From Pseudomonadales bacterium (GTDB taxonomy: Bacteria > Pseudomonadota > Gammaproteobacteria > Pseudomonadales > UBA7239), in assembly GCA_028280345.1 (NCBI GenBank), contig JANQLY010000008.1, positions 29,198 to 93,197 of the forward strand: a stretch of DNA of 64,000 nucleotides, written 5' to 3'. This document shows positions 41,057 through 55,908 of the stretch, piece by piece. Numbering within the stretch: the first letter of the stretch is position 1; every line of letters begins with the position of its first letter. The translations under genes were made by a program, and so were the position numbers. Under the pieces are notes generated by a model, which saw only the letters and a program-made list of their open reading frames with translations, was not told where the DNA came from and made no database searches.

Positions 41057-41123
41057 TAGCTAGGCGGTGCTTTTATCTTCAGTACTTCCAGCACCGCCGA
41101 CTCAACTCCTTTCCCCAAACTCG

Positions 41124-41915
41124 CTACTCCTTATTTTCCCCGCTTGCTTCAACTGGCTGTTCGTCTAGTTGACCTTGCTGTTGATCATCGCCAGACGTTT
41201 CAAGAGTGCTTTGTGCCGTCTTCGCGGCTTTGATATCGCGAATACACTGCCGGTTTAAAGAAAAAAAGAATTCTGCCGCAATCTCCGCCGAAGGCATTTG
41301 ATAAACAGCCGTCACCATCTCCGAGATATTCTGCCGATCAACCGCCGAATCAGCACCGGACATACTGACCAATGATTCAACGACCGCGTTAGCGTCATTG
41401 CCATAAAGTTTCTGATCAAGGATAAACATATGCAGATCGAGAAAACTGAAACAGAGTTTCTCTTCTGCCAGATCATAGGCAACCGATCCTGAATCGAGAC
41501 AGGCACGATAAGCCTCAAACGCAAAATTCTGTGGGTTACTGACCTGACCGGTTTTCAGCAATTCATATTGGGACTCAATAATTGGGTAAACCGGCTTATC
41601 TTTATAGTCATCAATAAACTCACGCTCAAAGTCATCAGCCACGTCATAACGCTTGAAGGTATTAAACAGCATATAATTTGACATCGCGAAATACAGACAG
41701 GTTTTGTGATGCCACAAGACCGCCACACGCTCCCCGACCTCGACAAGGTTGTCGTCCGTCAGCTGCAAAGATGGATCATCCTTGAGCACCTCCTTGATCA
41801 GCCGCTTTGTTTCCTCCCGGGAAGGTTCGGATTGGTTCGCGAATGCTGTGCTGGTAAATAGCAAGCTGGTGAGTAGAAGGAAGGTGGTGGCTATTTGGAG
41901 TGGTTGAAAGGCCAT
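41124..41915 (-). CDS. Hypothetical secreted/periplasmic protein with an acidic Q/E-rich C-terminus
   Basis: 263-aa ORF with signal peptide MAFQPLQIATTFLLLTSLLFTSTAFA/NQ. I recognise no domain. Confidence 0.6.
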   Translation of the reverse strand: MAFQPLQIATTFLLLTSLLFTSTAFANQSEPSREETKRLIKEVLKDDPSLQLTDDNLVEVGERVAVLWHHKTCLYFAMSNYMLFNTFKRYDVADDFEREFIDDYKDKPVYPIIESQYELLKTGQVSNPQNFAFEAYRACLDSGSVAYDLAEEKLCFSFLDLHMFILDQKLYGNDANAVVESLVSMSGADSAVDRQNISEMVTAVYQMPSAEIAAEFFFSLNRQCIRDIKAAKTAQSTLETSGDDQQQGQLDEQPVEASGENKE

Positions 41916-42165
41916 AATCAGTTCGAGCTAAGTCACGTAATATACATTTAGTTATCTTACGTGCTCGTTACGCAAGTAACAATGCCACCCCAACTCACCC
42001 ATTGATAATCTCGTATTCTGACTTATTAGATTTAGTAAGTGCTGGCTTTGAACAAACAATAGCACAAAAGATTTAGAGACTTTTAATGTCAGTTCGGGGC
42101 CGCACCCTAATCCTCTGCGCAAGCTATTGTTTTGAAAACACATTTTGAACCCCCTAAAAGGTGGT

Positions 42166-42183
42166 TACAACAGCGATACCAAC
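42166..42183. repeat. Left copy of the island-flanking direct repeat
   Basis: The sequence is TACAACAGCGATACCAAC, 69 nt downstream of the stop of the last operon gene. Confidence 0.6.
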
Positions 42184-42251
42184 GCCAAAATGTCCCCTTT
42201 TCGGACTTGAATTCGGACAATCCGGCCAACAGAGCGCAGCTCAGAAATTGT

Positions 42252-43577
42252 TTATTTATATTCAATATTCTCAAAAACAGTAATTCCAAGCTTATCTCTT
42301 ACTTGATAAAGCTGCCTGGGCAGTGCTGTAGCTAGAACCAAAACACAATCAACATCATATTTTTTCTGATTAACGTCACGCTCAGACTTTAAAACTGCAG
42401 AATACTTGATGCACTGATATAACCCTCTCTCAATATCATCATTACCTGAACGCTCCGACTTTACCTCTACCCCTAGAAGCTTGTTCAGACTCTCAAAAAC
42501 CACATCAACCGAATCGCCAGACCTTAAAGGATACTCAGGCACTCCAGTAATATTCTTATCATATCCAACCATTTCGGGGTGGGCTGCAATGTAATCACGC
42601 AAAGCCCGATGCTCAGGAGACCCTTCGCTTCCATAGGGATTGTAAAGACCTCTTCCAGGTTTTCTTTTGCTATACTTCTTGCCTATTGGGGTTATATTTA
42701 AGTTATGTAAAACTTTGTCCCATCTACCTCCAAAGCTAAATATTTTTTTATATTCAGAGAGCAAAAAGTCTTTCTTTTTTGTTGCAGTTAATTTTGGATA
42801 TGATGGATTAAATTCTTTAAGTCCATCACTAGGCAGTTTATTTCCAGAGTTAACAACCAGTGCTTGAATTATAGGTATAGTCTCGCCATCTATAGTCATC
42901 CCATCAAAAAGATGGCCCATTACGCCTAGCGTCTCACCAATTTGCTTTCCAAATAAATTTCCAGTATATGGCTTAGGGTAATTAACCGCCTCAGCCAATT
43001 CCCCATATGTAATATATTTATTACCGCCTTTAAAATCTCGAATGTGCTTGACAAGATAAGCCAAACACTTTTTTGCATATTTTTTGTGATTTATATTCTT
43101 TGACTTTTTTGCTTCGGTATCTTTGGCAGGTTTATCAGTATTTTCCAGCGGCTTAACATCTAATAATTTGCATACTATTTCTGAAGGCAGCCTTTTCTTA
43201 TATTGAGCTATTTTTTCCACGTTTGACCATAAAACACCATGCCTTCCATCTTTTCGCTCTCCAAGTAATTCTTCAATATCGCAGATATATACTATACAAG
43301 AACCTTCTCCATCCTCGCGAAATAAGCAAATATAATCTCTGTTATGCCATCCAACACTTCCGTAACTACTGTCCTCTCGACGGGTACTGCTTACCATGGC
43401 TGCCCTGTGGTGCGTATATGCCGCCACATGACAGTCCCCCCACTTGGGAATCTTGACAGTTCGACTATCAATCACCTTAGAGCTAGTAAAAAACCTCAAA
43501 CAAAATTGAATTGCTGTTTTTTTATTGGCAGCTTGATTCCCTGTTCGTGGATGTAAAACGCTGAAATTATTATTCAT
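42252..43577 (-). CDS. Uncharacterised three-part protein: unknown N-terminal domain, MGMT/ATL-like wHTH-type region, C-terminal NucS/DUF91-like PD-(D/E)xK nuclease domain
   Basis: 441-aa ORF, the last gene of the operon. Residues ~185-250 read ITYGELAEAVNYPKP...GKQIGETLGVMGHLF...IPIIQALVVNSGNKLPSDG. Residues ~320-395 read PEHRALRDYIAAHPEMVG...EYPLRSGDSVDVVFE...LLGVEVKSE...GLYQCIKYSAVL, giving D358, E371-x-K373 and a Q..Y helix. Confidence 0.6.
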   Translation of the reverse strand: MNNNFSVLHPRTGNQAANKKTAIQFCLRFFTSSKVIDSRTVKIPKWGDCHVAAYTHHRAAMVSSTRREDSSYGSVGWHNRDYICLFREDGEGSCIVYICDIEELLGERKDGRHGVLWSNVEKIAQYKKRLPSEIVCKLLDVKPLENTDKPAKDTEAKKSKNINHKKYAKKCLAYLVKHIRDFKGGNKYITYGELAEAVNYPKPYTGNLFGKQIGETLGVMGHLFDGMTIDGETIPIIQALVVNSGNKLPSDGLKEFNPSYPKLTATKKKDFLLSEYKKIFSFGGRWDKVLHNLNITPIGKKYSKRKPGRGLYNPYGSEGSPEHRALRDYIAAHPEMVGYDKNITGVPEYPLRSGDSVDVVFESLNKLLGVEVKSERSGNDDIERGLYQCIKYSAVLKSERDVNQKKYDVDCVLVLATALPRQLYQVRDKLGITVFENIEYK

Positions 43578-43602
43578 GATAAAAAAATCAGTATGTTAGA
43601 GA

Positions 43603-44256
43603 TCAATAAACATCTGCATGAGAAATTGGTACAAATTCCATGTTGTTGTTCAACTCAACTAGACCATTCTGGCTGAATGAAAATATCCTACTTTTTGGAA
43701 AAGTCTCTCTCAACTCACTCCATCCAATGCTTTTGTTGAGCCATGTTTTTTCTTTCAAACTTTCAGGCATATCATCAGGAAAATCGGGGTAATCAAATAT
43801 AGATATTTCGAGTGGTACTGCGGCAAAGATTCCTATAATTTCTTGGTTTTTAACAACCCATTCGTTATGAGACTCTATTTTTCGATTAGCAATCGTATCT
43901 TCTAGTTCATCAATAGAAATATTCTCAACTGGATTTGCATCTCTATTATCATTTTCATCAGCTCCAGATCCGCAGTCCCCTCTACATGCATTTACTATAG
44001 AGCCAGGCTCTTGAAAACCCAGGACGACTCCAATGCTTCCAATTGCATTACGAGTATTGCCATAAAAGTTATCTCCTGGCATAACAACGCTACAAGCCAA
44101 CCCATTTAACGCCCCCATGTTTAAAACATTATTAAGATCGTCCGGAAATGGATATTTATTATAGCCCGCACCCTTTGGTGTTCCTGAGAAATGAACCACC
44201 AGCGCATTATAACTTCGCAACAAAGAGATTACTGCGGATACATCTGGCCTAGCCAT
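43603..44256 (-). CDS. Hypothetical protein, orphan (no domain recognised)
   Basis: 217-aa ORF starting 35 nt after the Res stop and ending 25 nt before the next gene. It has no TM segment or signal peptide. An acidic linker (GADENDNRDANPVENISIDELED) separates two halves. Confidence 0.6.
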   Translation of the reverse strand: MARPDVSAVISLLRSYNALVVHFSGTPKGAGYNKYPFPDDLNNVLNMGALNGLACSVVMPGDNFYGNTRNAIGSIGVVLGFQEPGSIVNACRGDCGSGADENDNRDANPVENISIDELEDTIANRKIESHNEWVVKNQEIIGIFAAVPLEISIFDYPDFPDDMPESLKEKTWLNKSIGWSELRETFPKSRIFSFSQNGLVELNNNMEFVPISHADVY

Positions 44257-44291
44257 GACAAAGTTTAGTTCCTTCCACCATCTACTCCCTC

Positions 44292-47006
44292 TTATTTGGA
44301 ATATTCATACTGAGCGACAAAATCTTTTAAACTTTTATTTTCAGCTACAGCATCATGCGGAATCAGTGAATAATGCCATGATTTCCCATTGTTCTTTTTG
44401 GAATGCTCAGTAGCATTTCTACACCACTCAGACGCCGCTTCCGCTTTAGATAGAACCTCAGGGTCTTCCATGTTTACACTGGCTTTTGTTTCGGCCATAA
44501 GAATAAAGTCTTCGCCCTCAGCAACAAAATCCGGAATATACTCTTTATGATCGTTACCAGATTTATAGAATATCTTGAATTGCCCATTGGCTGGTTTAAA
44601 CCATTTTTCAGAATCCCTATCAACTATTATCGAGAAACGACGCTCAGTATCCGAATCGAACTTCTGAGGGTAATGCAGGCACTTCTTGAAACCACCAAAA
44701 AGCATTTTTCTTATATTTTTAACATCAGACACGGTTTCTCTAAAATCTTTAACAGACTCCCCTGCCGCAACCGAATATGTGGGTTTTCTCAGGTCCGTGA
44801 ATCCAGAACGAACCTCAACATCATATCCCGTCACCTCTTCCCAAAAATGCTCAGTCATTTGAGCGTGAACCAGATCAGCAATCCTGACTCGGTTGCCATC
44901 AAGGATATTAATGACTTCATCTTCTGAGAAGTCTTGAGTCTGCAAGTGCTTTACCACTTGCCCCGATAGATCGTATATAAGGTCTGCATGATCCTCATAA
45001 GAAATATCGTCATAATCAATAAGCGAATGAACAATATAATCTTCCAATCTATCTTCTTTAATACCAACTTGAGCTGATACGGTTAACTGCTCATTCGTAT
45101 GAAGATTCTGTAGCAAGATGTCCCGCTCACTGGCCTGCAAGTTAAATTTACTCAAATCAAGATCAAAATTGTTGTACCCGTAAGTCACATCTCCTTTGGG
45201 CACAACTACAACCCTTGGTATATCAATCGTCTCCTGCACTACCAATGCCGTCGCTTTTTCAACAACCGCTGCCAGGTCAACCTTCTCTTCTTCTTCCAGC
45301 AGTGATCTCTGTTGGCCAGTGATACGTTCTTCAACCTGGGATAGGACTTGTGCCTGAACTTCTGGCGATAAGAGGGATAAGCTATTTGGCGCAATATCGG
45401 GTGAATGTTGAAGCGAACTAATGACCTCAACGGTAGTCATCGCAACCTTCTGCTCTTCAACACCAGCAAACACCGGCTTAACACTGTCTGGCTTCGCATA
45501 TATGGTTCCCTGACTACCCTGAACGACAGTATTGGTAATTTGGCTCTCAAGAGTAGACGTGACTTGGACGCTCTCCTTGGGGCCAGTTTCAATATCTTCG
45601 CCAATAACAATCTGCTTCAGACGAATTGGGTTTTTCGGGTCATTGGCCTCATCTACTATCTCTTGGAACTTATCATGGGCAACAATATTCAAGCGATCCA
45701 CAGAGTCCTCTCCGGTACGCTTACCATATGGCAGGCGCAAACCTCTACCGATAGACTGCTCAATTAATGTACGGGCATTTGCTGCTCTTAAAGGTACGAT
45801 GGTGTACAGATTGGTAACATCCCAACCTTCCTTCAGCATATTAACGTGAATTACCACTTCTGTTGGCTCATCAAAGCTTTCAACGTCAAGCAAACGACGT
45901 ATCATCTCTTCTTCCGCCGCCCCAGATTTTGAGCTATCAACCTGAATTACCTTTCCTTTATAACGTCCTTCAAAAAAGCTATCGGACTCCATCAACTCCA
46001 ATAATTGAGCCGCATGGGTAATATCTCTTGCGATAACCAGCATAAATGGCTTCACCGGACTAAGCTCATTCATTTTGGCATAGGTAAGCAAGTCCACCTT
46101 GGTTATTTCATGTAGACGTATACCGTCTTCCAGCTTGATCTTTTCTACCTGCTCAGGAGTGTACTGGCTGACATCAAAGTTTTTTTGCGTGACTACGGCA
46201 GGCTCTTTTACAAACCCGTCATCCATAGCTCTTGCCAGCGGGTAATCCACCACAACATTTTTGAACTGAACAGGTCCACGGCTTGATTCTGTAAAAGGCG
46301 TAGCGGTAAGCTCCAAGCCCATCAGGGGCTTTAGCTCATTGATAGCACGAATCCCCGCACTAGCCCTGTAGCGGTGAGACTCATCCATAATCATGACGAG
46401 ATCAGGCAGGCTGGCCAAATAAGAGAAGTAGCTGTCGCCCAGGTATTCGGAAAGTCGCTTTATCCGCGGTGCTTTACCACCACGAACCTCAGAATTAATC
46501 TTTGAAATATTAAATATATTAATATCGACAGAACCCAGAAGGCTGCCGCCAGAGATATTTTGCTGTTCATAATTATCACCAGTGATAATCCTTGGCGCAT
46601 CTACAGAGAATTCTGCGATGCCTTTAAATACATACTTGGGGGTATTCGGTGTAAAGTCAGTAATCAACTTGTCATAAATTGTGAGATTGGGCGCAAGAAC
46701 AAAGAAATTTTTTATGCCATACGCGAGGTGCAAATAGGCAATAAATGCACCCATTAACCGAGTTTTACCCACACCTGTTGCCAAGGCGAAGCATAGAGAA
46801 GGAAAGTCACGCTCAAAATCTGATAGAGCGTCAAACTCTTCATGCAGTATCTTTAGAACATTATCTAAATCCTTCTCCTTCTGTAGAATATCTGGTGCTA
46901 TTTCCAACGACTTGGCCAAGACTTCAAGCGACTCATGCTGAGGAGCTCGTAGACTTAAACGTCCGTTTATTGAGTTTACGATTCGTTGATGTGTTAGGAC
47001 CGTCAT
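44292..47006 (-). CDS. res: Type III restriction enzyme Res-like subunit (SF2 helicase + C-terminal PD-(D/E)xK endonuclease)
   Basis: 904 aa. Helicase motif I is FALATGVGKTRLMG, II is IMDESHRY, III is LELTATP and VI is QSIGRGLRLPYG. The C-terminal nuclease motif is YIPDFVAEGEDFILMAETKAS. Its start overlaps the upstream Mod stop (ATGA at 47003-47006). Confidence 0.85.
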   Translation of the reverse strand: MTVLTHQRIVNSINGRLSLRAPQHESLEVLAKSLEIAPDILQKEKDLDNVLKILHEEFDALSDFERDFPSLCFALATGVGKTRLMGAFIAYLHLAYGIKNFFVLAPNLTIYDKLITDFTPNTPKYVFKGIAEFSVDAPRIITGDNYEQQNISGGSLLGSVDINIFNISKINSEVRGGKAPRIKRLSEYLGDSYFSYLASLPDLVMIMDESHRYRASAGIRAINELKPLMGLELTATPFTESSRGPVQFKNVVVDYPLARAMDDGFVKEPAVVTQKNFDVSQYTPEQVEKIKLEDGIRLHEITKVDLLTYAKMNELSPVKPFMLVIARDITHAAQLLELMESDSFFEGRYKGKVIQVDSSKSGAAEEEMIRRLLDVESFDEPTEVVIHVNMLKEGWDVTNLYTIVPLRAANARTLIEQSIGRGLRLPYGKRTGEDSVDRLNIVAHDKFQEIVDEANDPKNPIRLKQIVIGEDIETGPKESVQVTSTLESQITNTVVQGSQGTIYAKPDSVKPVFAGVEEQKVAMTTVEVISSLQHSPDIAPNSLSLLSPEVQAQVLSQVEERITGQQRSLLEEEEKVDLAAVVEKATALVVQETIDIPRVVVVPKGDVTYGYNNFDLDLSKFNLQASERDILLQNLHTNEQLTVSAQVGIKEDRLEDYIVHSLIDYDDISYEDHADLIYDLSGQVVKHLQTQDFSEDEVINILDGNRVRIADLVHAQMTEHFWEEVTGYDVEVRSGFTDLRKPTYSVAAGESVKDFRETVSDVKNIRKMLFGGFKKCLHYPQKFDSDTERRFSIIVDRDSEKWFKPANGQFKIFYKSGNDHKEYIPDFVAEGEDFILMAETKASVNMEDPEVLSKAEAASEWCRNATEHSKKNNGKSWHYSLIPHDAVAENKSLKDFVAQYEYSK

Positions 47007-48631
47007 TTGTCATCTCCAAAAAAATCTTCTTGCTCAGGATCTTCCTCAGGCAACTCCATTTGAGGCAAGCTCTTCACATTCAAACTATAGTCATCTCTAC
47101 CCCACTCGCAGCGAGACAGCACCATCTTCGGTATTTTCTTCAGCGTCAGATTTTCAAAGCGATCTGCTTTACAGCGGAAAGCACTACAACAAACCAGCAA
47201 ACTCCGACCTTCACCCACCTCTTCTGACAAGGCTTCGAGTTGCTCAACAGACAAGTTCTGAGTTGTCACATAGATAAAGTCGGTCTCTGTAGAGCGGCCA
47301 TGCTGCCACCAGACTGAGTCAGAGGGGTCATATTCAAAACCTTCAAGCTTACAGATAGCTTCTGCAAGCATCGCGGGGTTGTATTGCTGATTTACAACCC
47401 AATTGCCCCACCTATCCTTCTCTAACAAAGAAGGAGCAAGGGTGTAGTAGCGGAAACCACCACCACCTTTCCAATCTACAGACTCGCTAACACCACCATC
47501 ATCTTCCCCATCTATTACCATCTGGAGACGCGGAACAATATGGGTATCGCAGTGCTCACCAAGCTCTACCATTATCCACTTACGACCCATCTTATGAGCC
47601 ACTGCTCCAGTAGTACCAGAGCCAGCGAAGGAATCTAGAACCAAATCCCCTGGCTCACTACTCAGTGATATTATTTTTTCGAGCAATTGCTCAGGCTTCG
47701 GAGTTGCAAAAACATTATCCTCATCACTGAACATTGATTTTAGATGTGTACTTGCTATTTTATTACTACCAAAGTCTTCATGATTCCACCATGTATTTGG
47801 AGTCAGCTCATCTTTCATCTCATTTAAGTATTTTTTTAACATGGGTCTTCCGTCGCCTTTAAGCCCAAAGGTAATTCTTCCATCATTGAGCCATTCATTG
47901 AACTGCTCTAAATTGCATCTCCAATAACGATTTTTAGGCGGGAGGAATTTCTTTCCTGTCGGACCTGTTATCTCATATTGTCCCGCTGAATAAAATTTTC
48001 CGGCAGATAGGTTCTCCGATTTCCATGGTCCACGAGGATCACTATCAGGATTCTTAAACTTGGCTTTTTGCTCTACGGTTCTCGGCAATTTACCAAGCCT
48101 TGTTGCCATTTGGTTTTTTGCGTATAGCAATATATGGTCATTTGTACTCGACACATGCCGAGCAGTTTGATTGGATGTATATGCTTTTTGCCAAGATATA
48201 TCTGCAACAAAGTTAGCTCTGCCAAAAACCTCATCACAGAGCACTTTCAAATAATGCGCTTCATTGTCATCTATAGTAACCCACAACCATCCATCTTCTT
48301 TTAAGAGTGATCTAATAACTTCCAACCTCTCTCTTATTAAAGATAACCATATGGAATGCTCAAGACCATCTTCATAGTGCTCAAATGCACTACCGGTGTT
48401 ATAGGGTGGATCAATAAATACGCACTTTACTTTTCCAGCATAGTCCTGCTCTAAAGCCTTTAATGCCAATAGGTTGTCACCGAATATCAACTTATTATCA
48501 AAGATGTCATCGTCGGTGACTTTATGCTTGGCATGATAGGAATTACTCGGATCTTCTAATAGAATCCGTGGCTCAGGTTTTGGCCTTTTATCTTTACCTA
48601 TCCAAGTAAGCTCTAGCTTAGTTTTACTCAT
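47003..48631 (-). CDS. mod: Mod-type (beta-class) N6-adenine DNA methyltransferase, copy 2
   Basis: 542 aa. Motif IV FIDPPYNTG (aa ~72-80) precedes motif I DSFAGSGTTG (aa ~333-342), the order seen in type III Mods. It is a paralogue of the upstream gene. Confidence 0.85.
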   Translation of the reverse strand: MSKTKLELTWIGKDKRPKPEPRILLEDPSNSYHAKHKVTDDDIFDNKLIFGDNLLALKALEQDYAGKVKCVFIDPPYNTGSAFEHYEDGLEHSIWLSLIRERLEVIRSLLKEDGWLWVTIDDNEAHYLKVLCDEVFGRANFVADISWQKAYTSNQTARHVSSTNDHILLYAKNQMATRLGKLPRTVEQKAKFKNPDSDPRGPWKSENLSAGKFYSAGQYEITGPTGKKFLPPKNRYWRCNLEQFNEWLNDGRITFGLKGDGRPMLKKYLNEMKDELTPNTWWNHEDFGSNKIASTHLKSMFSDEDNVFATPKPEQLLEKIISLSSEPGDLVLDSFAGSGTTGAVAHKMGRKWIMVELGEHCDTHIVPRLQMVIDGEDDGGVSESVDWKGGGGFRYYTLAPSLLEKDRWGNWVVNQQYNPAMLAEAICKLEGFEYDPSDSVWWQHGRSTETDFIYVTTQNLSVEQLEALSEEVGEGRSLLVCCSAFRCKADRFENLTLKKIPKMVLSRCEWGRDDYSLNVKSLPQMELPEEDPEQEDFFGDDK

Positions 48632-48638
48632 TCAAACC

Positions 48639-50261
48639 TCAATCATCATCGAACATGCTAACTTGTTCAGGGTCTTCCTCAGGCAACTCCATCAGAGGCA
48701 AGTTCTTCACATTCAAGCTATAGTCATCTCTACCCCACTCGCAGCGGGACAGTACCATCTTCGGTATTTTCTTCAGCGTCAGGTTTTCAAGCCGATCTGC
48801 TTTACAGCGAAACGCGCTACAGCAAACCAGTAAACTGCGATCTTCACCAACCTCTTCCGATAGAGCTTCAAGTTGCTCTACTGAGAGATTTTGAGTTGTC
48901 ACATAGATAAAGTCGGTCTCTGTAGAGCGGCCATGCTGCCACCACAAAGAATCAGAGGGCTCATACTCAAAACCCTCTAGCTTACAAATGGCCTCGGCTA
49001 ACATCGCAGGATTATACTGTTGGTTTACAATCCAATTGCCCCACCTATCTTTCTCTAGCAGCGACGGGGCCAAGGTGTAATAACGGAAGCCACCGCCACC
49101 TTTCCAATTATTAGTTTTGGTAATACCGCCCTCATCTTCTCCATCTACCACTTTTTTTAGCCGAGGGACAATATGGGTATCACAGTGCTCACCAAGCTCC
49201 ACCATAATCCACTTGCGGCCCATCTTATGAGCTACCGCTCCAGTAGTGCCCGAACCCGCAAAGGAATCTAAAACCAAATCACCAGGGTTCGTCGCAAGAT
49301 GCACAACCCTTTCAAGTAGTCTCTCTGGTTTTGGGGTTGCAAAAGCAGAGTCTGCTCCAAATAATTTATGCCCCTCTTTTTTTGCTTCTTGTGAATGACC
49401 TACTTCAGAGTGCGTCCACCAAGACCAAGGAACCATACCAGGCATATCCGATAAAAATCTTTTTAGAGATGGCAAACTATCGCCTTTTGGACCATAGTAC
49501 ATTCTATTTTCACTTGTAAATTTTTCAAACCCTTCCTTAGTTACTCGCCAACAGCGGCCTGCCGACGGTGTTACAGACCTTCCTGAAGGTAGAGTAATGG
49601 CATACATTTGATTTGGTCTATAACCAGCAGCCGTGAAGTCACTAGCCTTCCATGGACCTCTTGGGTCATCATCAGGGTTTTTAAACTGTTTTGTTTGTTT
49701 CTCGTCAAGGGGAAGTAAATTTCGTGCTTGTTTAAATCTTGAAGGACTAGACGCGTAACATAGCAAATGCTCGTGAGCATCACTAATAGCTACTCGAGCA
49801 TCAGGTGAATATCGCTTCTGCCATAAAATATTCGCAACAAAACTTGATCTACCGAAAATCTCATCACATAGTACTTTCAAATAATGCGCCTCATGGTCAT
49901 CAATTGTTATCCACAATGAACCATCATCAGCAAGAAGATTTTTGATGATCTCCAATCTATCTTGCATCAAGCCCAACCAAATAGAATGCTCAAGACCATC
50001 TTCATAGTGCTCAAATGCACTTCCAGTGTTATAGGGCGGGTCAATAAATACGCACTTCACTTTTCCTGAATAGTCGTGCTCCAAAGCTTTTAATGCCAAC
50101 AGGTTGTCACCGAATATCAACTTATTATCAAAGATGTCACGGTCGGTAACTTTATGCTTGGCATGATAGGACTTGCTCGGATCTTCTAATAAAATCCGAG
50201 GTTCTAGCTTAGGTCTTTTATCCTTACCGACCCAGGTTAATTCAAGTTTATTTTTGCTCAT
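48639..50261 (-). CDS. mod: Mod-type (beta-class) N6-adenine DNA methyltransferase, copy 1
   Basis: 540 aa with the same motifs. The N-terminal ~150 aa and C-terminal ~200 aa are near-identical to copy 2, while the central ~170 aa are strongly divergent. Confidence 0.85.
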   Translation of the reverse strand: MSKNKLELTWVGKDKRPKLEPRILLEDPSKSYHAKHKVTDRDIFDNKLIFGDNLLALKALEHDYSGKVKCVFIDPPYNTGSAFEHYEDGLEHSIWLGLMQDRLEIIKNLLADDGSLWITIDDHEAHYLKVLCDEIFGRSSFVANILWQKRYSPDARVAISDAHEHLLCYASSPSRFKQARNLLPLDEKQTKQFKNPDDDPRGPWKASDFTAAGYRPNQMYAITLPSGRSVTPSAGRCWRVTKEGFEKFTSENRMYYGPKGDSLPSLKRFLSDMPGMVPWSWWTHSEVGHSQEAKKEGHKLFGADSAFATPKPERLLERVVHLATNPGDLVLDSFAGSGTTGAVAHKMGRKWIMVELGEHCDTHIVPRLKKVVDGEDEGGITKTNNWKGGGGFRYYTLAPSLLEKDRWGNWIVNQQYNPAMLAEAICKLEGFEYEPSDSLWWQHGRSTETDFIYVTTQNLSVEQLEALSEEVGEDRSLLVCCSAFRCKADRLENLTLKKIPKMVLSRCEWGRDDYSLNVKNLPLMELPEEDPEQVSMFDDD

Positions 50262-50276
50262 TTAACACATCAGACA

Positions 50277-52082
50277 TTAATTAGTTACTAACTCTAGTTG
50301 ATTAGCTTTACTGGAAAGCACTCTATATAAAGCTTGATTGTATGGATCATTGCCAGCCACTCTGCCAATTAGATTCTGCACGGTCTCATCATCCACTAAA
50401 TTTAAATACTCAATCCACACTTTGTAGATCAAGTCTTTTGTATCGGGAATTCGCTTAAAAAAAGCGTGAGGGGCAGCTCCTTGCGCCTGAGCTTCATAAT
50501 TGTCAGCAAACAACTGCCTTACTTCATCAAATGGCGTACTAAATGTTAATGCAATATCCGCCTCACTCAACAATGAATCACCATCAATTTCATCTTTAAA
50601 GTGCTTCATAAGAATAGAAATGATGGCGTAGCTGCAATGCCTGTAAACAAGCTTTTCTGGGCTAATTGATCCTTTTTCAGCAGTCAGAATAAGCTTATGC
50701 AATTGCTCATAAACCAATGTAGCGTTAACGGCTTTGATGCCAGTTAAATCATCGGTAAATATTTTTTTATAGGCTTCCGAATTAACAGTCGTAAACTGAC
50801 TCGGATCAGATTTCAATCTTGCCGGATATCGTATATCAACATATAAACAACCCAAAGCCTTTGATAAGCTTTCAATCGTTATCACCTTAACGCCTGTGGT
50901 CGAAACTCTCTGTGGTCGGTAATGGTACTCTACGCCATAGAGTTTAATTTCTTGACGCAATCTCTCTTGATTGTCATCAAGAGCAGCAAAATTGGATAGC
51001 TCAACAGGGTTTTGTAAGTTTCTAGCCTTTGTTACTTTCTTATGAAATTGCTCTTGCCCTGTATTAATAAGGGTTACCATGACTTGAGCTGTAGATATGT
51101 CTGCGTCTGGGTGCTCATCAACGAATTGTGAGGCCGACGAAATTGTCTGAGCCCCATTAACCACCGAAAGCCCGAGAACATTAAAATTTTTAGTCAATGT
51201 TGAACCCCTAACATTTGACTTTGCCTCTACATGATTGCCAACCATTGTTATGCCATTATTTAAATACTGAAAATTTTCAGGCTCATTAACTAATGTATCT
51301 CTTATTGCAGTGTTTACCCCTCTCTTTCCGGAGCCGATATAATATCGAATATTCTTTTCGTAAAGCTTTTTCCCATGCTTTTCGTATAAACCCACCAATT
51401 CACTGACCCTCATAAGCCCAAAGACAGAATATCGAGGGCTGCTTGAAGTGCGGTATTTATGGATTTTTACTTTTTCATTAATTGGTCGTACTGCACTTTC
51501 TTCCCTCAAGGCCGCTTCAATATCATCTGCACCAAATACGATAGGGTCTACTTGTAACTGCTCTTCACCACCATCAATTAAATCTTGCAGCTTTTGTCTT
51601 AGCTCATTCGATGCCTGCTGAGAAACCCCGTCTCCAGTACAAGCAATCAAAAGACATATTTTTTCACACTCATCAAGTGCATTCTCAATGTACTGCTCAA
51701 TATTTTTTACATTTTGGTTAAATGAATCAAAGTCTTTTGCAAGAATAAGCTCCAATCCGCTGATTAACGCCTGCGCTTCAGACAATTTAAATTGCTCGCT
51801 CTCTTTAAGTTTGGATTGAATTATGTAGAGCGTTTTACTTGCATCATCATAATAAAAAGCATCAATTCCATGATCCTCATAATCATCAACAACCAAACGA
51901 GAAGCCGTTAAAGCGTCCACTTCAAACTTAGTACTAATAGCATAGGCACTGAGTGCTCTAGATATTTCTTTTGTTGCCGCATCTACTGGGTTAGCATTCC
52001 CCAATAATGGCGGAAGATGGGGAACATACCTCTCATCCAAAATCTTCTTCAAGGCAGTTATCATTGCGGGCTGCATAGCCAT
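50277..52082 (-). CDS. AIPR-like (abortive infection phage resistance family) protein with a possible N-terminal D...QxK nuclease-like motif
   Basis: 601 aa. YLNNGITMVGN and LSVVNGAQTISS match AIPR-family signatures as I remember them. The N-terminus has HGIDAFYYDD...LYIIQSKL. Its start codon overlaps the SNF2 stop (TAATG at 52080-52084). Confidence 0.6.
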   Translation of the reverse strand: MAMQPAMITALKKILDERYVPHLPPLLGNANPVDAATKEISRALSAYAISTKFEVDALTASRLVVDDYEDHGIDAFYYDDASKTLYIIQSKLKESEQFKLSEAQALISGLELILAKDFDSFNQNVKNIEQYIENALDECEKICLLIACTGDGVSQQASNELRQKLQDLIDGGEEQLQVDPIVFGADDIEAALREESAVRPINEKVKIHKYRTSSSPRYSVFGLMRVSELVGLYEKHGKKLYEKNIRYYIGSGKRGVNTAIRDTLVNEPENFQYLNNGITMVGNHVEAKSNVRGSTLTKNFNVLGLSVVNGAQTISSASQFVDEHPDADISTAQVMVTLINTGQEQFHKKVTKARNLQNPVELSNFAALDDNQERLRQEIKLYGVEYHYRPQRVSTTGVKVITIESLSKALGCLYVDIRYPARLKSDPSQFTTVNSEAYKKIFTDDLTGIKAVNATLVYEQLHKLILTAEKGSISPEKLVYRHCSYAIISILMKHFKDEIDGDSLLSEADIALTFSTPFDEVRQLFADNYEAQAQGAAPHAFFKRIPDTKDLIYKVWIEYLNLVDDETVQNLIGRVAGNDPYNQALYRVLSSKANQLELVTN

Positions 52083-54934
52083 TACGCCACCTCCCAGTGT
52101 ATTGACAATATTTCTGACTCAGATACCTTCTGAACCAACTTATCTTCTAAACCCTGAATCAAAGTATCACGACGCACATCAACCTCGTCCTGCCTATCAA
52201 AAAGCTCTCTTCTTAACTTATTCCGCTTCTTTTCCATTTCCTTTTGCTGCTTCTGTAAATCAAGCTTTTCTTCTAGGGTCATCACAAATTTGGCCATTTT
52301 ACGAACCCCATTAATTTCCTTTTCGAGTTCCTTTATTTCCTGCTCTATGCCCTGTTTCTGGTCATCCGCCCAAGCATCAAGCTTATCTATCTCTTCACTA
52401 AAAAACTCAAGGTTACGGCTATTAATAGCCTCGATAACCGTCTGCTTCTCATCTTCCAACCTTTTATTAAGCGATTCCGGTATAACCCCATCAGCTTCTC
52501 CAACCACTTCAGCAGAATACATCCACAAAGACTCAACCTGATCTCTATTTAAAAACTCGCCATCTTCAGACTGAGAGACCATTACAATAACGTCCTCAAC
52601 CTCACCAAATGTCTCAACAGAAAGTAGCAGCATTCTCAGCCACCCAGACTCTCCGACTAGGGTCTCAACCTTTGTGGAAGAAACTGGGTTGTTAGAGTAA
52701 TCAAACCTGATTGTAGAGAACGGTAGCTCCTGAGCCTTGGCACTATCAATGATCGCGCCTGCCAATGGATGCCTGACTCCAAAGGCATGAGCATCTTCAA
52801 TGTTCTTTCCTATCTCATAGTCGCCCAGCGGTATGCTTGCTTCAGCTAATGGCGGCAGCCCCTTTAAAGAAAACCTATGGCGACTCGCATCGAATTCTGC
52901 AAAGCCTTCAAGTCTATTCTTCGACAAATCCCATAACCTCTGGCTATATTTATCCAGATATGCCTTGCTTTCCCTTAAATTAACCTTGAGTTTGTCATGA
53001 ACTTCGGCATCGAAATTTTCCAGCAATTTCTGTCTGGTTGAATCCATTGCAACATTTATTTGTTCATCCAGCTCTGACCTTAGCTCCTCAAACTGAAAGT
53101 CAATTTGCTCAGGCTCTCGGCACGTCTGGTATATATCAACAATTCGATTTTCAAATTCCACCCCAGACTCAATAGCCCCTAGAACTTCATCACTTGCACC
53201 AAAGACTCCGCTGAATAGATTGAATTTTTGATCCAGAAGCTCAAACACTCGTTGATCTGCCGCATTAGCCCTATTTAAAAAGTTTATAACCACTACGTCA
53301 TGTTTCTGACCATAGCGATGGCATCGGCCAATGCGCTGCTCAATCCTTTGAGGGTTCCATGGGAGATCATAATTTACCAGTAGGGAGCAGAACTGAAGAT
53401 TGATGCCCTCTGCTGCCGCTTCTGTCGCAATCATAATCTGCGCATCTTCACGAAAATAATCTACCAAAGCCGCTCTCATATCCGCAGTTCGAGACCCCGT
53501 TACCCGATCACTACCGGCATACGCCTCTTTCCAGTCTGAATATATCTGCTTTGATTTTTCATCATTATTTGAACCATTAAACAAGACAATTTTATCTTGA
53601 TAGCCTCGATCACCAAGCAGCTTAACCAAGTAGTTCTGCGTTCGCCTTGATTCTGTAAAGATAATTGCCTTGTTAGCCGCACCTAACTCCTCTGCTTTTT
53701 TGAAACCTGTTTCTAGCGCATCTATCAATGCCAATCCCTTAGCATTCTCGGTAATAGACACAGCTAAATCTTTGAAAACGGTAAGCTCACCAATCTCTTC
53801 ATTTATTGCTGCAATATCTTCTTCTGTTAGAGGCTCATTTTCATCCTCTATCTCAAACTCATCCTCATACTCTTCCAGTAATTCAAAATCTTCTTCTAGT
53901 GACTCCAGCCTATCGACCAGCCTCTGATTCTCCTTAAGCTGCCTATTCAACTTGTTGACCAGAGAATCTAGTGCTCCAGCTATCGCAAAAGTCGATGAGG
54001 CCAATAATTTTCTCATCACCAGTGTCATCAGCTTACGCTGGGCATTCGGTAATGCACACAGCTCAGGTCTTTGAAGATAACCAGATACCATGTCATACAA
54101 ATCTTGCTCATCTTGAGTTGGCCAGAACTCTTGAGTGATGGGCAATCGGTTCGTATATTTCACATACTCAAGCACCTGTCTTCTCAATGTCCTATGACAC
54201 AGAGGGCTTAAACGAACTTTTAATTCCGCAAACTGAGAATCATTGGTGATTCTCGAATACTGAGCTTTGAAACTTTTCTCATCCCCAAATGCAAATTCGT
54301 CAATAAAGCTCACCAATCCATACAACTCCATCAACGAATTTTGCAAAGGGGTTGCGGTAAGAAGAACTTTGGGTACGTTTGCAAGTGCCGTCCTTAAGGC
54401 TCTGGCTGTTTTATTCTGCTTCTTATATACATTTCTCAGACGATGCGCCTCATCCAGAATGACAAGGTCCCACTTCACCAACATCAATTCTTCTGCATGG
54501 CGAGCAGCAAATGGATAGGAACAAATCAAAATCTCAGTATGCTCAAACGGGTTTGACTTGCCCTGCTTGATGGCACTGTTCCACGTACGCGCTTCCAGAA
54601 TATATGATGGCAAAAAGAATTTATCGGCAAGCTCCTGACTCCACTGCTTCCTTAAACTGGCGGGCACGATAATTATTATTCTTCTCTTACCCTCAGCCCA
54701 TTTCTGCGATAACACCAAACCCGCCTCAATAGTCTTACCCAAGCCAACTTCATCGGCCAGTATTGCCCCATTGGATAGTGGAGACTTAAAGGCAAACAGG
54801 GCCGCTTCTACCTGATGCGGATTTAAATCAACCTGAGCATCCATCAATGTACCGGCAAACTTCTCCATGCTGTCTGAGGAGCATCGCTTGCTAAGCTCAT
54901 GAGCGAAATATTTAGCGTGGTAGTCGGTAATCAC
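52082..54934 (-). CDS. SNF2-family helicase with a ~350-aa uncharacterised C-terminal extension ending in a coiled coil
   Basis: 950 aa. Motif I is LADEVGLGKTIEAG, II is LDEAHRLRN, III is LLTATPLQNSLMELY, and V/VI is ATEAAAEGINLQ...WNPQRIEQRIGRCHRYGQK. The C-terminus is rich in E/K heptads (EIKELEKEINGVRK...KQQKEMEKKRNKLRREL). Confidence 0.88.
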   Translation of the reverse strand: MITDYHAKYFAHELSKRCSSDSMEKFAGTLMDAQVDLNPHQVEAALFAFKSPLSNGAILADEVGLGKTIEAGLVLSQKWAEGKRRIIIIVPASLRKQWSQELADKFFLPSYILEARTWNSAIKQGKSNPFEHTEILICSYPFAARHAEELMLVKWDLVILDEAHRLRNVYKKQNKTARALRTALANVPKVLLTATPLQNSLMELYGLVSFIDEFAFGDEKSFKAQYSRITNDSQFAELKVRLSPLCHRTLRRQVLEYVKYTNRLPITQEFWPTQDEQDLYDMVSGYLQRPELCALPNAQRKLMTLVMRKLLASSTFAIAGALDSLVNKLNRQLKENQRLVDRLESLEEDFELLEEYEDEFEIEDENEPLTEEDIAAINEEIGELTVFKDLAVSITENAKGLALIDALETGFKKAEELGAANKAIIFTESRRTQNYLVKLLGDRGYQDKIVLFNGSNNDEKSKQIYSDWKEAYAGSDRVTGSRTADMRAALVDYFREDAQIMIATEAAAEGINLQFCSLLVNYDLPWNPQRIEQRIGRCHRYGQKHDVVVINFLNRANAADQRVFELLDQKFNLFSGVFGASDEVLGAIESGVEFENRIVDIYQTCREPEQIDFQFEELRSELDEQINVAMDSTRQKLLENFDAEVHDKLKVNLRESKAYLDKYSQRLWDLSKNRLEGFAEFDASRHRFSLKGLPPLAEASIPLGDYEIGKNIEDAHAFGVRHPLAGAIIDSAKAQELPFSTIRFDYSNNPVSSTKVETLVGESGWLRMLLLSVETFGEVEDVIVMVSQSEDGEFLNRDQVESLWMYSAEVVGEADGVIPESLNKRLEDEKQTVIEAINSRNLEFFSEEIDKLDAWADDQKQGIEQEIKELEKEINGVRKMAKFVMTLEEKLDLQKQQKEMEKKRNKLRRELFDRQDEVDVRRDTLIQGLEDKLVQKVSESEILSIHWEVA

Positions 54935-54937
54935 AGA

Positions 54938-55129
54938 TCAACTGTCCTTGTCCTCAGATTGGTTATGATGGTCATCCATCCATTGCTCTAATTCAGACTT
55001 CTTAAAACGCCAACTACCCCCTACTTTGAAGCCAGGTATCTTTCCTGCAGCTGCCAGTCTATAGGTGGTCTTTTCAGCGAGCTTTAAGTATTCAGCCACC
55101 TCTTTAAGGGTGAAAATTTCATCATCCAT
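54938..55129 (-). CDS. Small excisionase/MerR-type helix-turn-helix DNA-binding protein
   Basis: The track ORF extends to 55237, but the conserved part starts at ATG 55129: MDDEIFTLKEVAEYLKLAEKTTYRLAAAGKIPGFKVGGSWRFKKSELEQWMD (63 aa). It ends 3 nt before the SNF2 start. Confidence 0.75.
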   Translation of the reverse strand: MDDEIFTLKEVAEYLKLAEKTTYRLAAAGKIPGFKVGGSWRFKKSELEQWMDDHHNQSEDKDS

Positions 55130-55314
55130 TAATATGTTCTCAATATTTCCGCTTGAGAGAATAGTTGAAAAATGGGGAAATGACAAACCTATAGTTTTAG
55201 TATGGTTATACACCCTAATCTTTGTGCTTATTAGCAATTAGGTATTAGGAAAAAAGACCGGATCAGCCCTCTGAACCAGCCTTTCACGTGTCTGTCAGTT
55301 TATGTATTGCCATT

Positions 55315-55364
55315 TGTTGGTATCACGCCTAAATTGAACCAAGAATACCAACACGATACCAACA
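55315..55364. promoter_or_regulatory. 10-bp perfect inverted repeat TGTTGGTATC (55315-55324) / GATACCAACA (55355-55364) with a 30-bp spacer, plus a third ATACCAAC copy at 55345-55352. It is a candidate operator or recombination site upstream of the operon.
   Basis: Read directly. It lies ~80-235 bp upstream of the HTH gene start candidates, and its right arm coincides with the right island direct repeat. Confidence 0.45.
55346..55363. repeat. Right copy of the island-flanking direct repeat
   Basis: The sequence is TACCAACACGATACCAAC. Confidence 0.6.
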
Positions 55365-55593
55365 ATTAGCGTTAATTCACAGGGTACGCATGGGACAATA
55401 TGGGACGTCAATATAGGTATAACTTATTGTTTTTATTGTATTTTAGGTACCACCATGGACGCCATGGGACCCAGTGGGAAACGAGGAGTGGTACCCAAAG
55501 CATTCGTTCTCCTCATGGGGCAGGCTCTACCCGGGGCTGGGCGAAACGGATCAGAAAACGATTGAGTATCGTTTTTCCGCTGAGCGCCCGAAG

Positions 55594-55615
55594 GGCCGGA
55601 ATAGTCCGGCCTTTT
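55594..55615 (+). terminator. GC-rich hairpin GGCCGGA-ATAG-TCCGGCC followed by TTTT on the plus strand. A second, weaker hairpin AAAACGAT-TGAGT-ATCGTTTTT lies at ~55556-55577.
   Basis: The stem, loop and T-run were read directly. On the minus strand (the tRNA operon direction) only the second hairpin is followed by a U-tract, so which transcript these terminate is unclear. Confidence 0.4.
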
Positions 55616-55671
55616 CAACCTCTGTAATGCGAATCCTGAAAAGCGAAAGAAAAATATAGCTTTATTGAAGT

Positions 55672-55758
55672 TGGTGCCCGGGGCCGGACTTGAACCGGCA
55701 CGGCCGTGAAGCCGGGAGATTTTAAGTCTCCTGTGTCTACCAATTCCACCACCCGGGC
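55672..55758 (-). tRNA. leuZ: tRNA-Leu, anticodon UAA (type II, long variable arm)
   Basis: The reverse complement is GCCCGGGTGGTGGAATTGGTAGACACAGGAGACTTAAAATCTCCCGGCTTCACGGCCGTGCCGGTTCAAGTCCGGCCCCGGGCACCA. It has a 7-bp acceptor stem, anticodon loop CTTAAAA and an encoded CCA, and it closely resembles E. coli leuZ. Confidence 0.93.
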
Positions 55759-55834
55759 CACGAGAGGTATTTATCCACGAAGGTAGTTCGTGCCTGCCCC
55801 TGGTTTTTGGCGCTATCACGCCAGACTGGGAAAA

Positions 55835-55908
55835 TGGAGGCGCGGGTCGGAATCGAACCGGCGTACACGGAGTTGCAGTCCGCTGCATAACCACTCTGCC
55901 ACCGCGCC
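55835..55908 (-). tRNA. cysT: tRNA-Cys, anticodon GCA
   Basis: The reverse complement is GGCGCGGTGGCAGAGTGGTTATGCAGCGGACTGCAACTCCGTGTACGCCGGTTCGATTCCGACCCGCGCCTCCA. It folds as a cloverleaf with one C-A mismatch in the T stem, and CCA is encoded. Confidence 0.9.

Follow-up and report, generated by a model that had tools for sequence, protein, structure and literature searches.

Tandem Type III-like Mod genes with divergent target recognition domains upstream of a single Res gene in an SNF2-linked locus of a Pseudomonadales bacterium

Restriction-modification (R-M) loci of Type III in which several Mod genes stand before one Res gene are already known from Mycoplasma. In Mycoplasma bovis PG45, three co-localized mods, whose 5' and 3' parts are conserved and whose target recognition domains (TRDs) vary, accompany one res, and an origin by duplication and subsequent TRD acquisition has been proposed (PMC5909438); the system is named M1/M2/M3.Mbo45ORF167P, with one res (Mbo45V). 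The M. bovis Mods are 69-71% identical, Mod1 forms a homodimer, and the enzyme, Mod2Res1, recognizes YAATC (bioRxiv 10.64898/2026.05.01.722158). In M. agalactiae 5632, two tandem mods (MAGa1570/1580) are ~65% identical, and a motif, GAAG, has been assigned for one of them (PMC9465063). M. pulmonis is likewise among the multi-Mod Type III loci already described. Here, we analyze a stretch of 64,000 nucleotides (the window) from a Pseudomonadales bacterium (GenBank assembly GCA_028280345.1, contig JANQLY010000008.1, positions 29,198 to 93,197 of the forward strand), which adds an SNF2-linked case to this layout: two intact mod paralogues, named ModA and ModB, lie in tandem directly upstream of a single res. 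We favor, with a probability of roughly 60%, a reading in which two functional, co-expressed Mods with different specificities share one Res in a horizontally acquired, SNF2-linked Type III-like operon.

Likeness to described multi-Mod and Type III systems

The genes on which this reading turns are as follows.

48639..50261, minus strand: ModA, 540 aa, a beta-class N6-adenine methyltransferase of the Type III Mod type (PADLOC MTase_III, E = 2e-220)
48632..48638, minus strand: the ModA-ModB spacer, 7 nt, read directly from the sequence
47003..48631, minus strand: ModB, 542 aa, a second intact Mod (PADLOC MTase_III, E = 2e-225)
44292..47006, minus strand: Res, 904 aa, a superfamily 2 (SF2) helicase-nuclease (Pfam ResIII; PADLOC REase_III, E = 9e-205)

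As in the Mycoplasma loci, where two to three co-oriented mods that are 65-70% identical lie 5' of a single res and the last mod overlaps that res, the two window mods are co-oriented paralogues with conserved termini and variable TRDs (70% identity over full length by BLASTP), and the stop codon of ModB shares an ATGA overlap with the start of Res, placing mod directly 5' of res. The proposed Mycoplasma origin by duplication plus TRD acquisition fits the window pair too. The differences are equally clear. Each Mycoplasma mod carries a GA/AG simple-sequence tract and is switched independently, whereas no simple-sequence tract was found in either window mod (TRF, minimum score 30), and the locus does not have the makeup of a phasevarion. 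Given that the two mods lack such tracts and lie in one operon, constitutive dual expression is implied. The window also represents another Mod/Res family, linked to SNF2 and Abi genes, with ~22% identity to the Mbo45V Mod in a fold alignment, and it shows a measurable gene-conversion signature.

The enzyme whose architecture is most useful for thinking about the pair is EcoP15I. In its Mod2Res1 holoenzyme, one protomer recognizes the site through its TRD, and its partner flips the adenine and methylates it; the N-terminal domain and the methyltransferase core form the dimer, and the C-terminal domain of one protomer holds Res (PMC4490356). By analogy, the conserved parts of ModA and ModB would correspond to the dimer-forming and Res-binding parts of EcoP15I, and the part that differs would be the TRD. 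The window resembles EcoP15I and EcoP1I in its beta-class Mods with the TRD between motifs IV and I, in its SF2-helicase Res, and in the mod-res overlap. It differs in having two Mods, added SNF2 and AIPR genes, and a Res that is weakly similar (E = 8e-7 over ~100 aa against EcoP15I Res), and in being known here from sequence. The Res translation nonetheless contains the motifs GVGKT, DESH, and QSIGRGLR, as well as a C-terminal IPDF...AETK of the PD-(D/E)xK type, as expected of a Type III Res. A Type III enzyme would further assemble as Mod2Res1/2, hemimethylate a short asymmetric site, and need ATP and two unmethylated sites in inverse orientation for cleavage.

Exchange of TRDs among Type III mods, with conserved flanks around a hypervariable TRD, has long been known (PMC1557822; PMC3467074). 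The modA alleles of Haemophilus influenzae and Neisseria and the "DoMo" of Helicobacter pylori are alike in having an exchanged central TRD between conserved flanks. Those alleles replace one another at one locus or move between loci, whereas in the window, two alleles coexist in tandem.

The ModA-ModB mosaic and its history

Aligning the two genes, a check that the first-pass annotation of this DNA had proposed for mapping mosaic boundaries, yields a conserved-divergent-conserved pattern: identity is 84% over aa 1-145, ~36% over aa 146-312, and 87% over aa 313-540. In sliding windows, identity is 85-100% over aa 1-90, 60-80% over aa 91-145, 20-45% over aa 146-312, and ~95% over aa 331-520. 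Thus, the annotation's description of near-identical termini holds for the last ~200 aa and for aa 21-90 but not for aa 91-145. The divergent center that it had reported maps close to where it had been placed (~49826-49326 in ModA and 48196-47693 in ModB) and is flanked, as described, by motif IV (DPPY, aa 74-77) and motif I (FAGSG, aa 334-338); the 53-nt repeat that it had noted is exact in position and in its offset of 1,633 nt. The blocks and the three longest repeats are as follows.

49326..49826, minus strand: divergent central block of ModA, aa 146-312, which holds the TRD
47693..48196, minus strand: divergent central block of ModB, aa 146-313, which holds the TRD
47259..47311 (ModB copy) and 48892..48944 (ModA copy): 53-nt perfect direct repeat, offset 1633
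48471..48509 (ModB copy) and 50101..50139 (ModA copy): 39-nt perfect direct repeat
48354..48391 and 49984..50021: 38-nt perfect direct repeat, neighbor of the 39-nt one

Besides the 53-nt repeat, the perfect Mod-Mod runs measure 39, 38, 29, 29, 23, and 20 nt, with offsets of 1630 or 1633. The Mod-Mod repeats are direct; inverted repeats in the Mod genes are limited to short imperfect matches (73-90%).

Several observations identify the proteins and their variable centers. Both Mods match Pfam N6_N4_Mtase and have the motif order of beta-class Type III enzymes. Among sequences in the PDB, the Mod matches H. pylori Mod (6k0w, 1e-46) and EcoP15I Mod (4zcf, 2e-26), and the EcoP15I TRD aligns within the divergent block. 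An AF2/AlphaFold structure model, made for ModA only, has a mean pLDDT (predicted local distance difference test score) of 77, with values of >90 over aa 170-280; its top folds, matched over nearly the full length, are 6k0w, 4zcf (the two Mod chains of EcoP15I), and 7dsu, the Mbo45V Mod of M. bovis, with E ~1e-25 against 4zcf chains A and B. The alignments to the EcoP15I and H. pylori Mods, the fold of the ModA model, and the family-wide hypervariability of the block together uphold the first-pass assignment of the center as the TRD. The sequence alignment shows the TRDs of ModA and ModB to be homologous.

Neither copy looks damaged. Among 114 columns that are at least 97% conserved across 129 homologues, ModA keeps 114/114 and ModB keeps 113/114, the sole deviation being L19P. 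By the Nei-Gojobori method, synonymous divergence (dS) between the two genes reaches 1.25 for the N-terminal and 1.30 for the C-terminal part, nonsynonymous divergence (dN) is 0.08-0.09, and dN/dS is ~0.07; in the center, dS is saturated and dN is 0.69. Judged by these values, both Mods are intact and under purifying selection, and two specificities, as the first-pass annotation had suggested, are therefore the natural reading of the divergent TRDs. The termini are not recently duplicated at the DNA level; dS of ~1.3 implies a long, stable coexistence of ModA and ModB.

How, then, did the termini stay so similar? Part of the answer lies in the family. Over aa 1-145, ModA shares 84% identity with ModB and also 86% with a metagenome homologue (L106) and 85% with a homologue from Methylococcaceae (L028). 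In the C-terminal part, ModA and ModB are mutually closest (87% versus 78% for the next best). Much of the terminal similarity is thus family-wide conservation, yet a real excess remains. At 87%, the identity of the two scaffolds lies at the 99.3rd percentile of 8515 family pairs, whereas their TRD identity of 32-36% lies at the 37th percentile, as for any random pair. The silent sites carry a further signal. Where the amino acid is identical, the two genes use the same codon at 64% (N-terminal) and 59% (C-terminal) of positions, compared with 32-50% between loci and 37% in the center. Matching and differing codons fall into clusters (permutation P = 0.0065 in the N terminus and 0.0018 in the C terminus), the longest-run P is 0.055 (N terminus) and 0.016 (C terminus), and low-dS patches lie at codons 31-90, 436-465, and 481-525. 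We read ModA and ModB as probably two old alleles whose scaffolds have swapped patches by gene conversion while in tandem. On this reading, the perfect repeats would be a footprint, or by-product, of gene conversion rather than a programmed switch, and three factors would account for the similar termini: a strong constraint across the family, common ancestry, and patchy gene conversion.

The sequence was assembled from coral metagenomes, and the region is present in three coral metagenome runs (X1, X2, and X3). The host is a gammaproteobacterium of Cellvibrionales-like type, and no species representative has a UvrC more than 60% identical to its own. In principle, two strain alleles of a single mod could have been stitched together in tandem, given such a source and repeats longer than the k of 31. 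In run X1, unitigs end precisely at the 53- and 39-nt repeats, which have depths of 46.7 and 55, i.e., double those of unique ModB (26), unique ModA (21), and the flanks (23-24); the piece that covers the ModA/ModB junction (48480-48921) has a depth of 22, level with the flanks. In a second sample, X2, one contig (48361-48753) likewise runs across the junction, and the same architecture occurs in three other loci, one of them on a complete chromosome. The tandem arrangement is real, and an assembly artefact is extremely improbable. X1 depth (21-26x across flanks, unique parts, and junction) likewise shows no sign of a deletion subpopulation and no deletion joint; one apparent X1 joint (47929>54296) was disregarded, one of its sides being only 21 nt long. 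Exact-protein look-ups of ModA and ModB returned no further contigs.

Run X3 is ambiguous. One of its contigs (4.3x; window positions 49787-50099) follows the ModA sequence over 49787-50021 and then has ModB letters at 7/7 diagnostic sites (50022-50069), switching paralogue across the 38-nt perfect repeat. This contig could represent a recombinant or gene-converted strain or a misjoin in a k-mer graph. Since X3 covers the region at 2-4x and both canonical branches are absent from it, a real variant is no likelier than a misjoin in the k=31 graph.

The operon, its island, and the SNF2-Mod-Res family

The remaining genes of the operon, the open reading frames (ORFs) behind Res, and one edge of the surrounding island are as follows.

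55672..55908, minus strand: tRNA-Leu(taa) and tRNA-Cys(gca), at a border of the low-GC island
54938..55237, minus strand: small HTH_17 (AlpA/excisionase-like) ORF directly 5' of the SNF2 gene (Pfam PF12728, E = 7e-18)
52082..54934, minus strand: SNF2-family helicase, DrmD-like (Pfam SNF2-rel_dom and Helicase_C; PADLOC DrmD, E = 8e-215)
50277..52082, minus strand: AIPR/AbiU-like abortive-infection protein (Pfam PF10592, E = 3e-37; PADLOC AbiU, E = 1.5e-36)
43603..44256, minus strand: ORF without a family match, 217 aa, tightly packed behind Res
42252..43577, minus strand: ORF without a family match, 441 aa, tightly packed behind Res
41124..41915, minus strand: ORF without a family match, 263 aa, in the island 3' of Res

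The operon runs, with all genes co-oriented on the minus strand, in the order HTH, SNF2, AIPR, ModA, ModB, Res. SNF2 and AIPR overlap by 1 nt, AIPR and ModA are 15 nt apart, and only the 7-nt spacer separates ModA from ModB. Based on this gene spacing, ModA and ModB are probably co-transcribed. A GAGG Shine-Dalgarno sequence ahead of the ModB start overlaps the ModA stop codon and therefore suggests translational coupling of the two. Scans for promoters and terminators gave fewer matches than in shuffled sequence, and their results were not used. The true start of the HTH_17 ORF is probably an internal ATG.

The locus lies in a low-GC block (~41.1-55.6 kb; 37-44% GC versus 51-56% in the flanks) placed between infA and the tRNA-Cys/tRNA-Leu pair, which is itself downstream of uvrC-pgsA; low GC and this placement together indicate a horizontally acquired island. 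A search for a duplicate of the tRNA-Leu 3' end, as expected at an attachment site, found no repeat of ≥12 nt, and the island (41100-55670) contains no integrase. Between 41 and 56 kb, there is no recombinase gene, and no silent cassette was found. Even at E = 1, the 263-, 441-, and 217-aa ORFs match nothing in Pfam, NCBIfam, or PADLOC, and they have no counterpart in related loci; the 217- and 441-aa ORFs may be further defense cargo.

The DrmD-like helicase raised class 1 DISARM as a candidate. The likeness is that, in both, a DrmD-related SNF2 helicase adjoins an N6-adenine methylase. The window differs in having a Type III Res and no DrmA, DrmB, or DrmC; the helicase scores 725 bits against NCBIfam DISARM_DrmD_b, below the cutoff of 950; and the island contains no DUF1998 or PLD genes. 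Class 1 DISARM was therefore rejected. A Type IIS M1/M2 pair, with one methylase per strand, was set aside as well: the nuclease is a Res-type SF2 helicase-nuclease, and a single Mod is the family norm.

That family is large. At E < 1e-50, ModA has more than 8000 protein matches, and the SNF2-[slot]-Mod-[slot]-Res cassette is very common, with members in many phyla. SNF2, the first large gene of the cassette, is conserved 5' of Mod in most related loci. Salmonella IncFIB plasmids carry the cassette in the same HTH-SNF2-Abi-methylase-helicase order, with an HTH gene at the position of the window HTH_17 ORF. One of these loci (L186; Salmonella enterica plasmid NZ_CP117699.1, 29910-47553) has a Mod that is 53% identical; an IS256 element is inserted between its SNF2 and Abi genes, the gene annotations are generic only, and the plasmids are conjugative IncFIB plasmids.

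The two slots hold variable cargo. The SNF2-Mod gap exceeds 300 bp in 74/101 loci (occupants include AIPR, AAA_13 plus HEPN_AbiV, and Abi), and the AIPR gene that fills this slot in the window is found in only a subset of related loci. The Mod-Res gap exceeds 300 bp in 54/137 loci, with YhcG/DUF1016 in 18, RhuM in 12, Schlafen-AlbA_2 in 4, and PDDEXK_3 in 3 loci, and also Abi_2. In the window, it is ModB that occupies this second slot. YhcG/DUF1016, RhuM, Abi_2, Schlafen-AlbA_2, and AIPR are the same cargo classes that are found inside Type I R-M operons. Type I systems with cargo or a duplicated hsdS resemble the window in these variable slots and in the multiplication of targets by a duplicated specificity module; they differ in that the specificity module of the window is a whole Mod subunit instead of a separate HsdS, with neither the inverted repeats nor the recombinase of phase-variable hsdS systems.

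Across the family, the central block has a median identity of 35-39% and the termini ~70-73%, and scaffold relatedness correlates only weakly with TRD type (rho 0.21). The ModA TRD belongs to the commonest type (a cluster of 39/131 sequences; closest relative L109, 72%), and the ModB TRD belongs to a rare one (a cluster of 3, comprising ModB, L001, and L156, at 63-67% identity).

Second Mods are rare: ~77 loci from species-representative genomes yielded none and 80 metagenome loci yielded two (L107 and L124), such that ~98% of the related loci in these two sets have a single Mod; the closest relatives of ModA (77-78% identity) also have just one Mod each. When 185,579 genomes were scanned for the junction pattern, one further tandem emerged, in Hyphobacterium sp. 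(L193), a count that is a lower bound, as the pattern would miss junctions like those of L107 (EWA versus EWG) and L124 (long spacer). L193 (metagenome-assembled genome, NZ_OZ245794.1, 219-3505) has the order Mod-Mod-Res, with Mods that are 71% identical and the same but much sharper mosaic: the 3' ends share a perfect direct repeat of 287 nt and the 5' ends one of 185 nt, the intermediate scaffold is 88% identical, and the center is at background level. Its mods share an ATGA overlap, its upstream Mod has DPPF in place of DPPY, and its downstream TRD resembles, by eye, the TRD in L107's second Mod. In L124 (JACXTT010049057.1, 1133-4567), an in-frame stop, which could be copy decay or a sequencing error, interrupts the upstream Mod at the Trp that is conserved in the WQK motif, and the downstream Mod (585 aa) is intact, with a larger, unrelated TRD. 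The junctions of the four tandem loci differ (7-nt spacer, TAATG overlap, ~63-nt spacer, and ATGA overlap), as mostly do their downstream TRDs; the tandem therefore arose more than once.

A proposed division of labor and its alternatives

We posit that ModA and ModB would be made from one transcript and translationally coupled and that they would present a common scaffold (an N-terminal part for dimerization, the methyltransferase core, and a C-terminal domain that binds Res) with TRDs of unrelated allelic types. Based on the EcoP15I analogy, each would confer its own asymmetric N6-methyladenine (m6A) motif, as homodimers or as a heterodimer, and both kinds of complex would use the single Res. 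In this model, two motifs would be modified and restricted by one motor-nuclease, and two motifs would raise the density of sites on invading DNA. Sharing of the Res would thus accompany the two distinct specificities and the co-expression that the sequences suggest. Given a division of labor of the EcoP15I type, a dimer of one ModA and one ModB would still be able to serve either motif, and homo- and heterodimers would therefore predict the same methylome. Such a heterodimer is plausible, as the dimerization and Res-binding parts are conserved in both paralogues. We infer that the host would be safe: after replication, unmethylated sites of both kinds would have their target strand on the nascent strand, resulting in one site orientation and thus no head-to-head pair.

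Could the two kinds of complex also work together? EcoP1I and EcoP15I are said to cooperate in cleavage, a result attributed to Kunz et al. in 1998. If ModA and ModB complexes cooperate likewise, mixed head-to-head pairs would also count. The fuller version of this idea, that mixed ModA-ModB-Res complexes form alongside homodimeric ones and that complexes at ModA sites and ModB sites cooperate in cleavage via the shared Res, is one that we hold only tentatively and consider rather less likely than not to apply. If it does apply, any head-to-head pair from the union of both motifs would be targetable on an unmethylated invader, the gain would be more than additive, and escape by site-orientation bias would be defeated. 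Gene conversion would then be selected, keeping the scaffolds compatible with each other and with Res.

Several points weigh against our favored explanation of two functional Mods sharing one Res. The two different motifs are read from the divergence of the TRDs. Of the tandem Mods in M. agalactiae, just one could be given a motif (PMC9465063), and one tandem copy in L124 has a premature stop; one copy can thus be silent or decaying. Moreover, with an SNF2 helicase in the family, the system may not be exactly EcoP15I-like.

The L124 and M. agalactiae observations also lend some weight to the view that one window Mod is nonfunctional or decaying or is an orphan methylase serving gene regulation. 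Yet both window copies are still full length after silent-site saturation, with dN/dS of ~0.07 and 113-114/114 invariant residues kept, and both sit inside a tightly coupled operon, so we regard decay or an orphan role as unlikely. We give about the same low standing to a recombinational specificity switch, in which the direct terminal repeats would delete a copy or swap TRDs and generate population-level variation, as the first-pass annotation had envisaged. The perfect repeats of 53, 39, and 38 nt, the traces of past gene conversion, the longer repeats of L193 (185-287 nt), and the X3 contig with its ModA-to-ModB change at 7/7 diagnostic sites all speak for such a switch. The locus, however, has no recombinase, notable inverted repeat, silent cassette, or simple-sequence tract and thus does not have the makeup of a recombinase-driven shufflon; dS of ~1.3 implies lengthy coexistence; X1 depth is flat; and the X3 contig comes from 2-4x coverage, with a k=31 misjoin as likely. 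Furthermore, because the repeats are direct, recombination between them irreversibly deletes one TRD and does not switch it. What can be detected is historical gene conversion only.

The first-pass annotation had also raised a Mod heterodimer that methylates both strands or reads a bipartite site. An obligate ModA-ModB heterodimer with split roles (one protomer recognizing and the other methylating), with two-strand methylation, or with a bipartite site would draw on the labor division of the EcoP15I Mod dimer, on dimer surfaces in the N-terminal domain and methyltransferase core that are conserved in both paralogues, and on the translational coupling of the mod genes. We consider it slightly more doubtful still than a switch or a decaying copy. 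All catalytic and family-invariant residues are present in both Mods (ModB L19P aside), so neither looks specialized, and with ~98% of family loci having a single Mod, homodimers suffice. M. bovis Mod1 alone is an active homodimer with Res (bioRxiv 10.64898/2026.05.01.722158). A bipartite site conflicts with EcoP15I, in which the second TRD makes no contact with DNA and the dimer occupies a single site (PMC4490356; PMC4005696). Methylation of both strands by the pair is likewise unlikely: single-Mod loci are the rule, and a second Mod is therefore not needed for self-protection. Mod heterodimers are not addressed in the multi-Mod literature cited here, and the word is absent from bioRxiv 10.64898/2026.05.01.722158.

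In total, these observations place the "several Mods, one Res" layout outside Mycoplasma as well. Within a very large and little-studied SNF2-linked Type III-like family, found in many phyla and on plasmids, tandem Mods arise sporadically: at least four times, and in ~1-2% of loci. The silent-site mosaic of the window documents concerted evolution of a scaffold whose TRD is freely exchanged. Whether Mod heterodimers form and function is a question that arises because recognition and catalysis are split between protomers; the window, which is free of simple-sequence repeats, and Hyphobacterium L193 are natural test cases for it and for concerted evolution in Type III systems. As for the organism itself, it should carry two Type III-like m6A motifs that stem from one operon, which would matter for the interpretation of its methylome.

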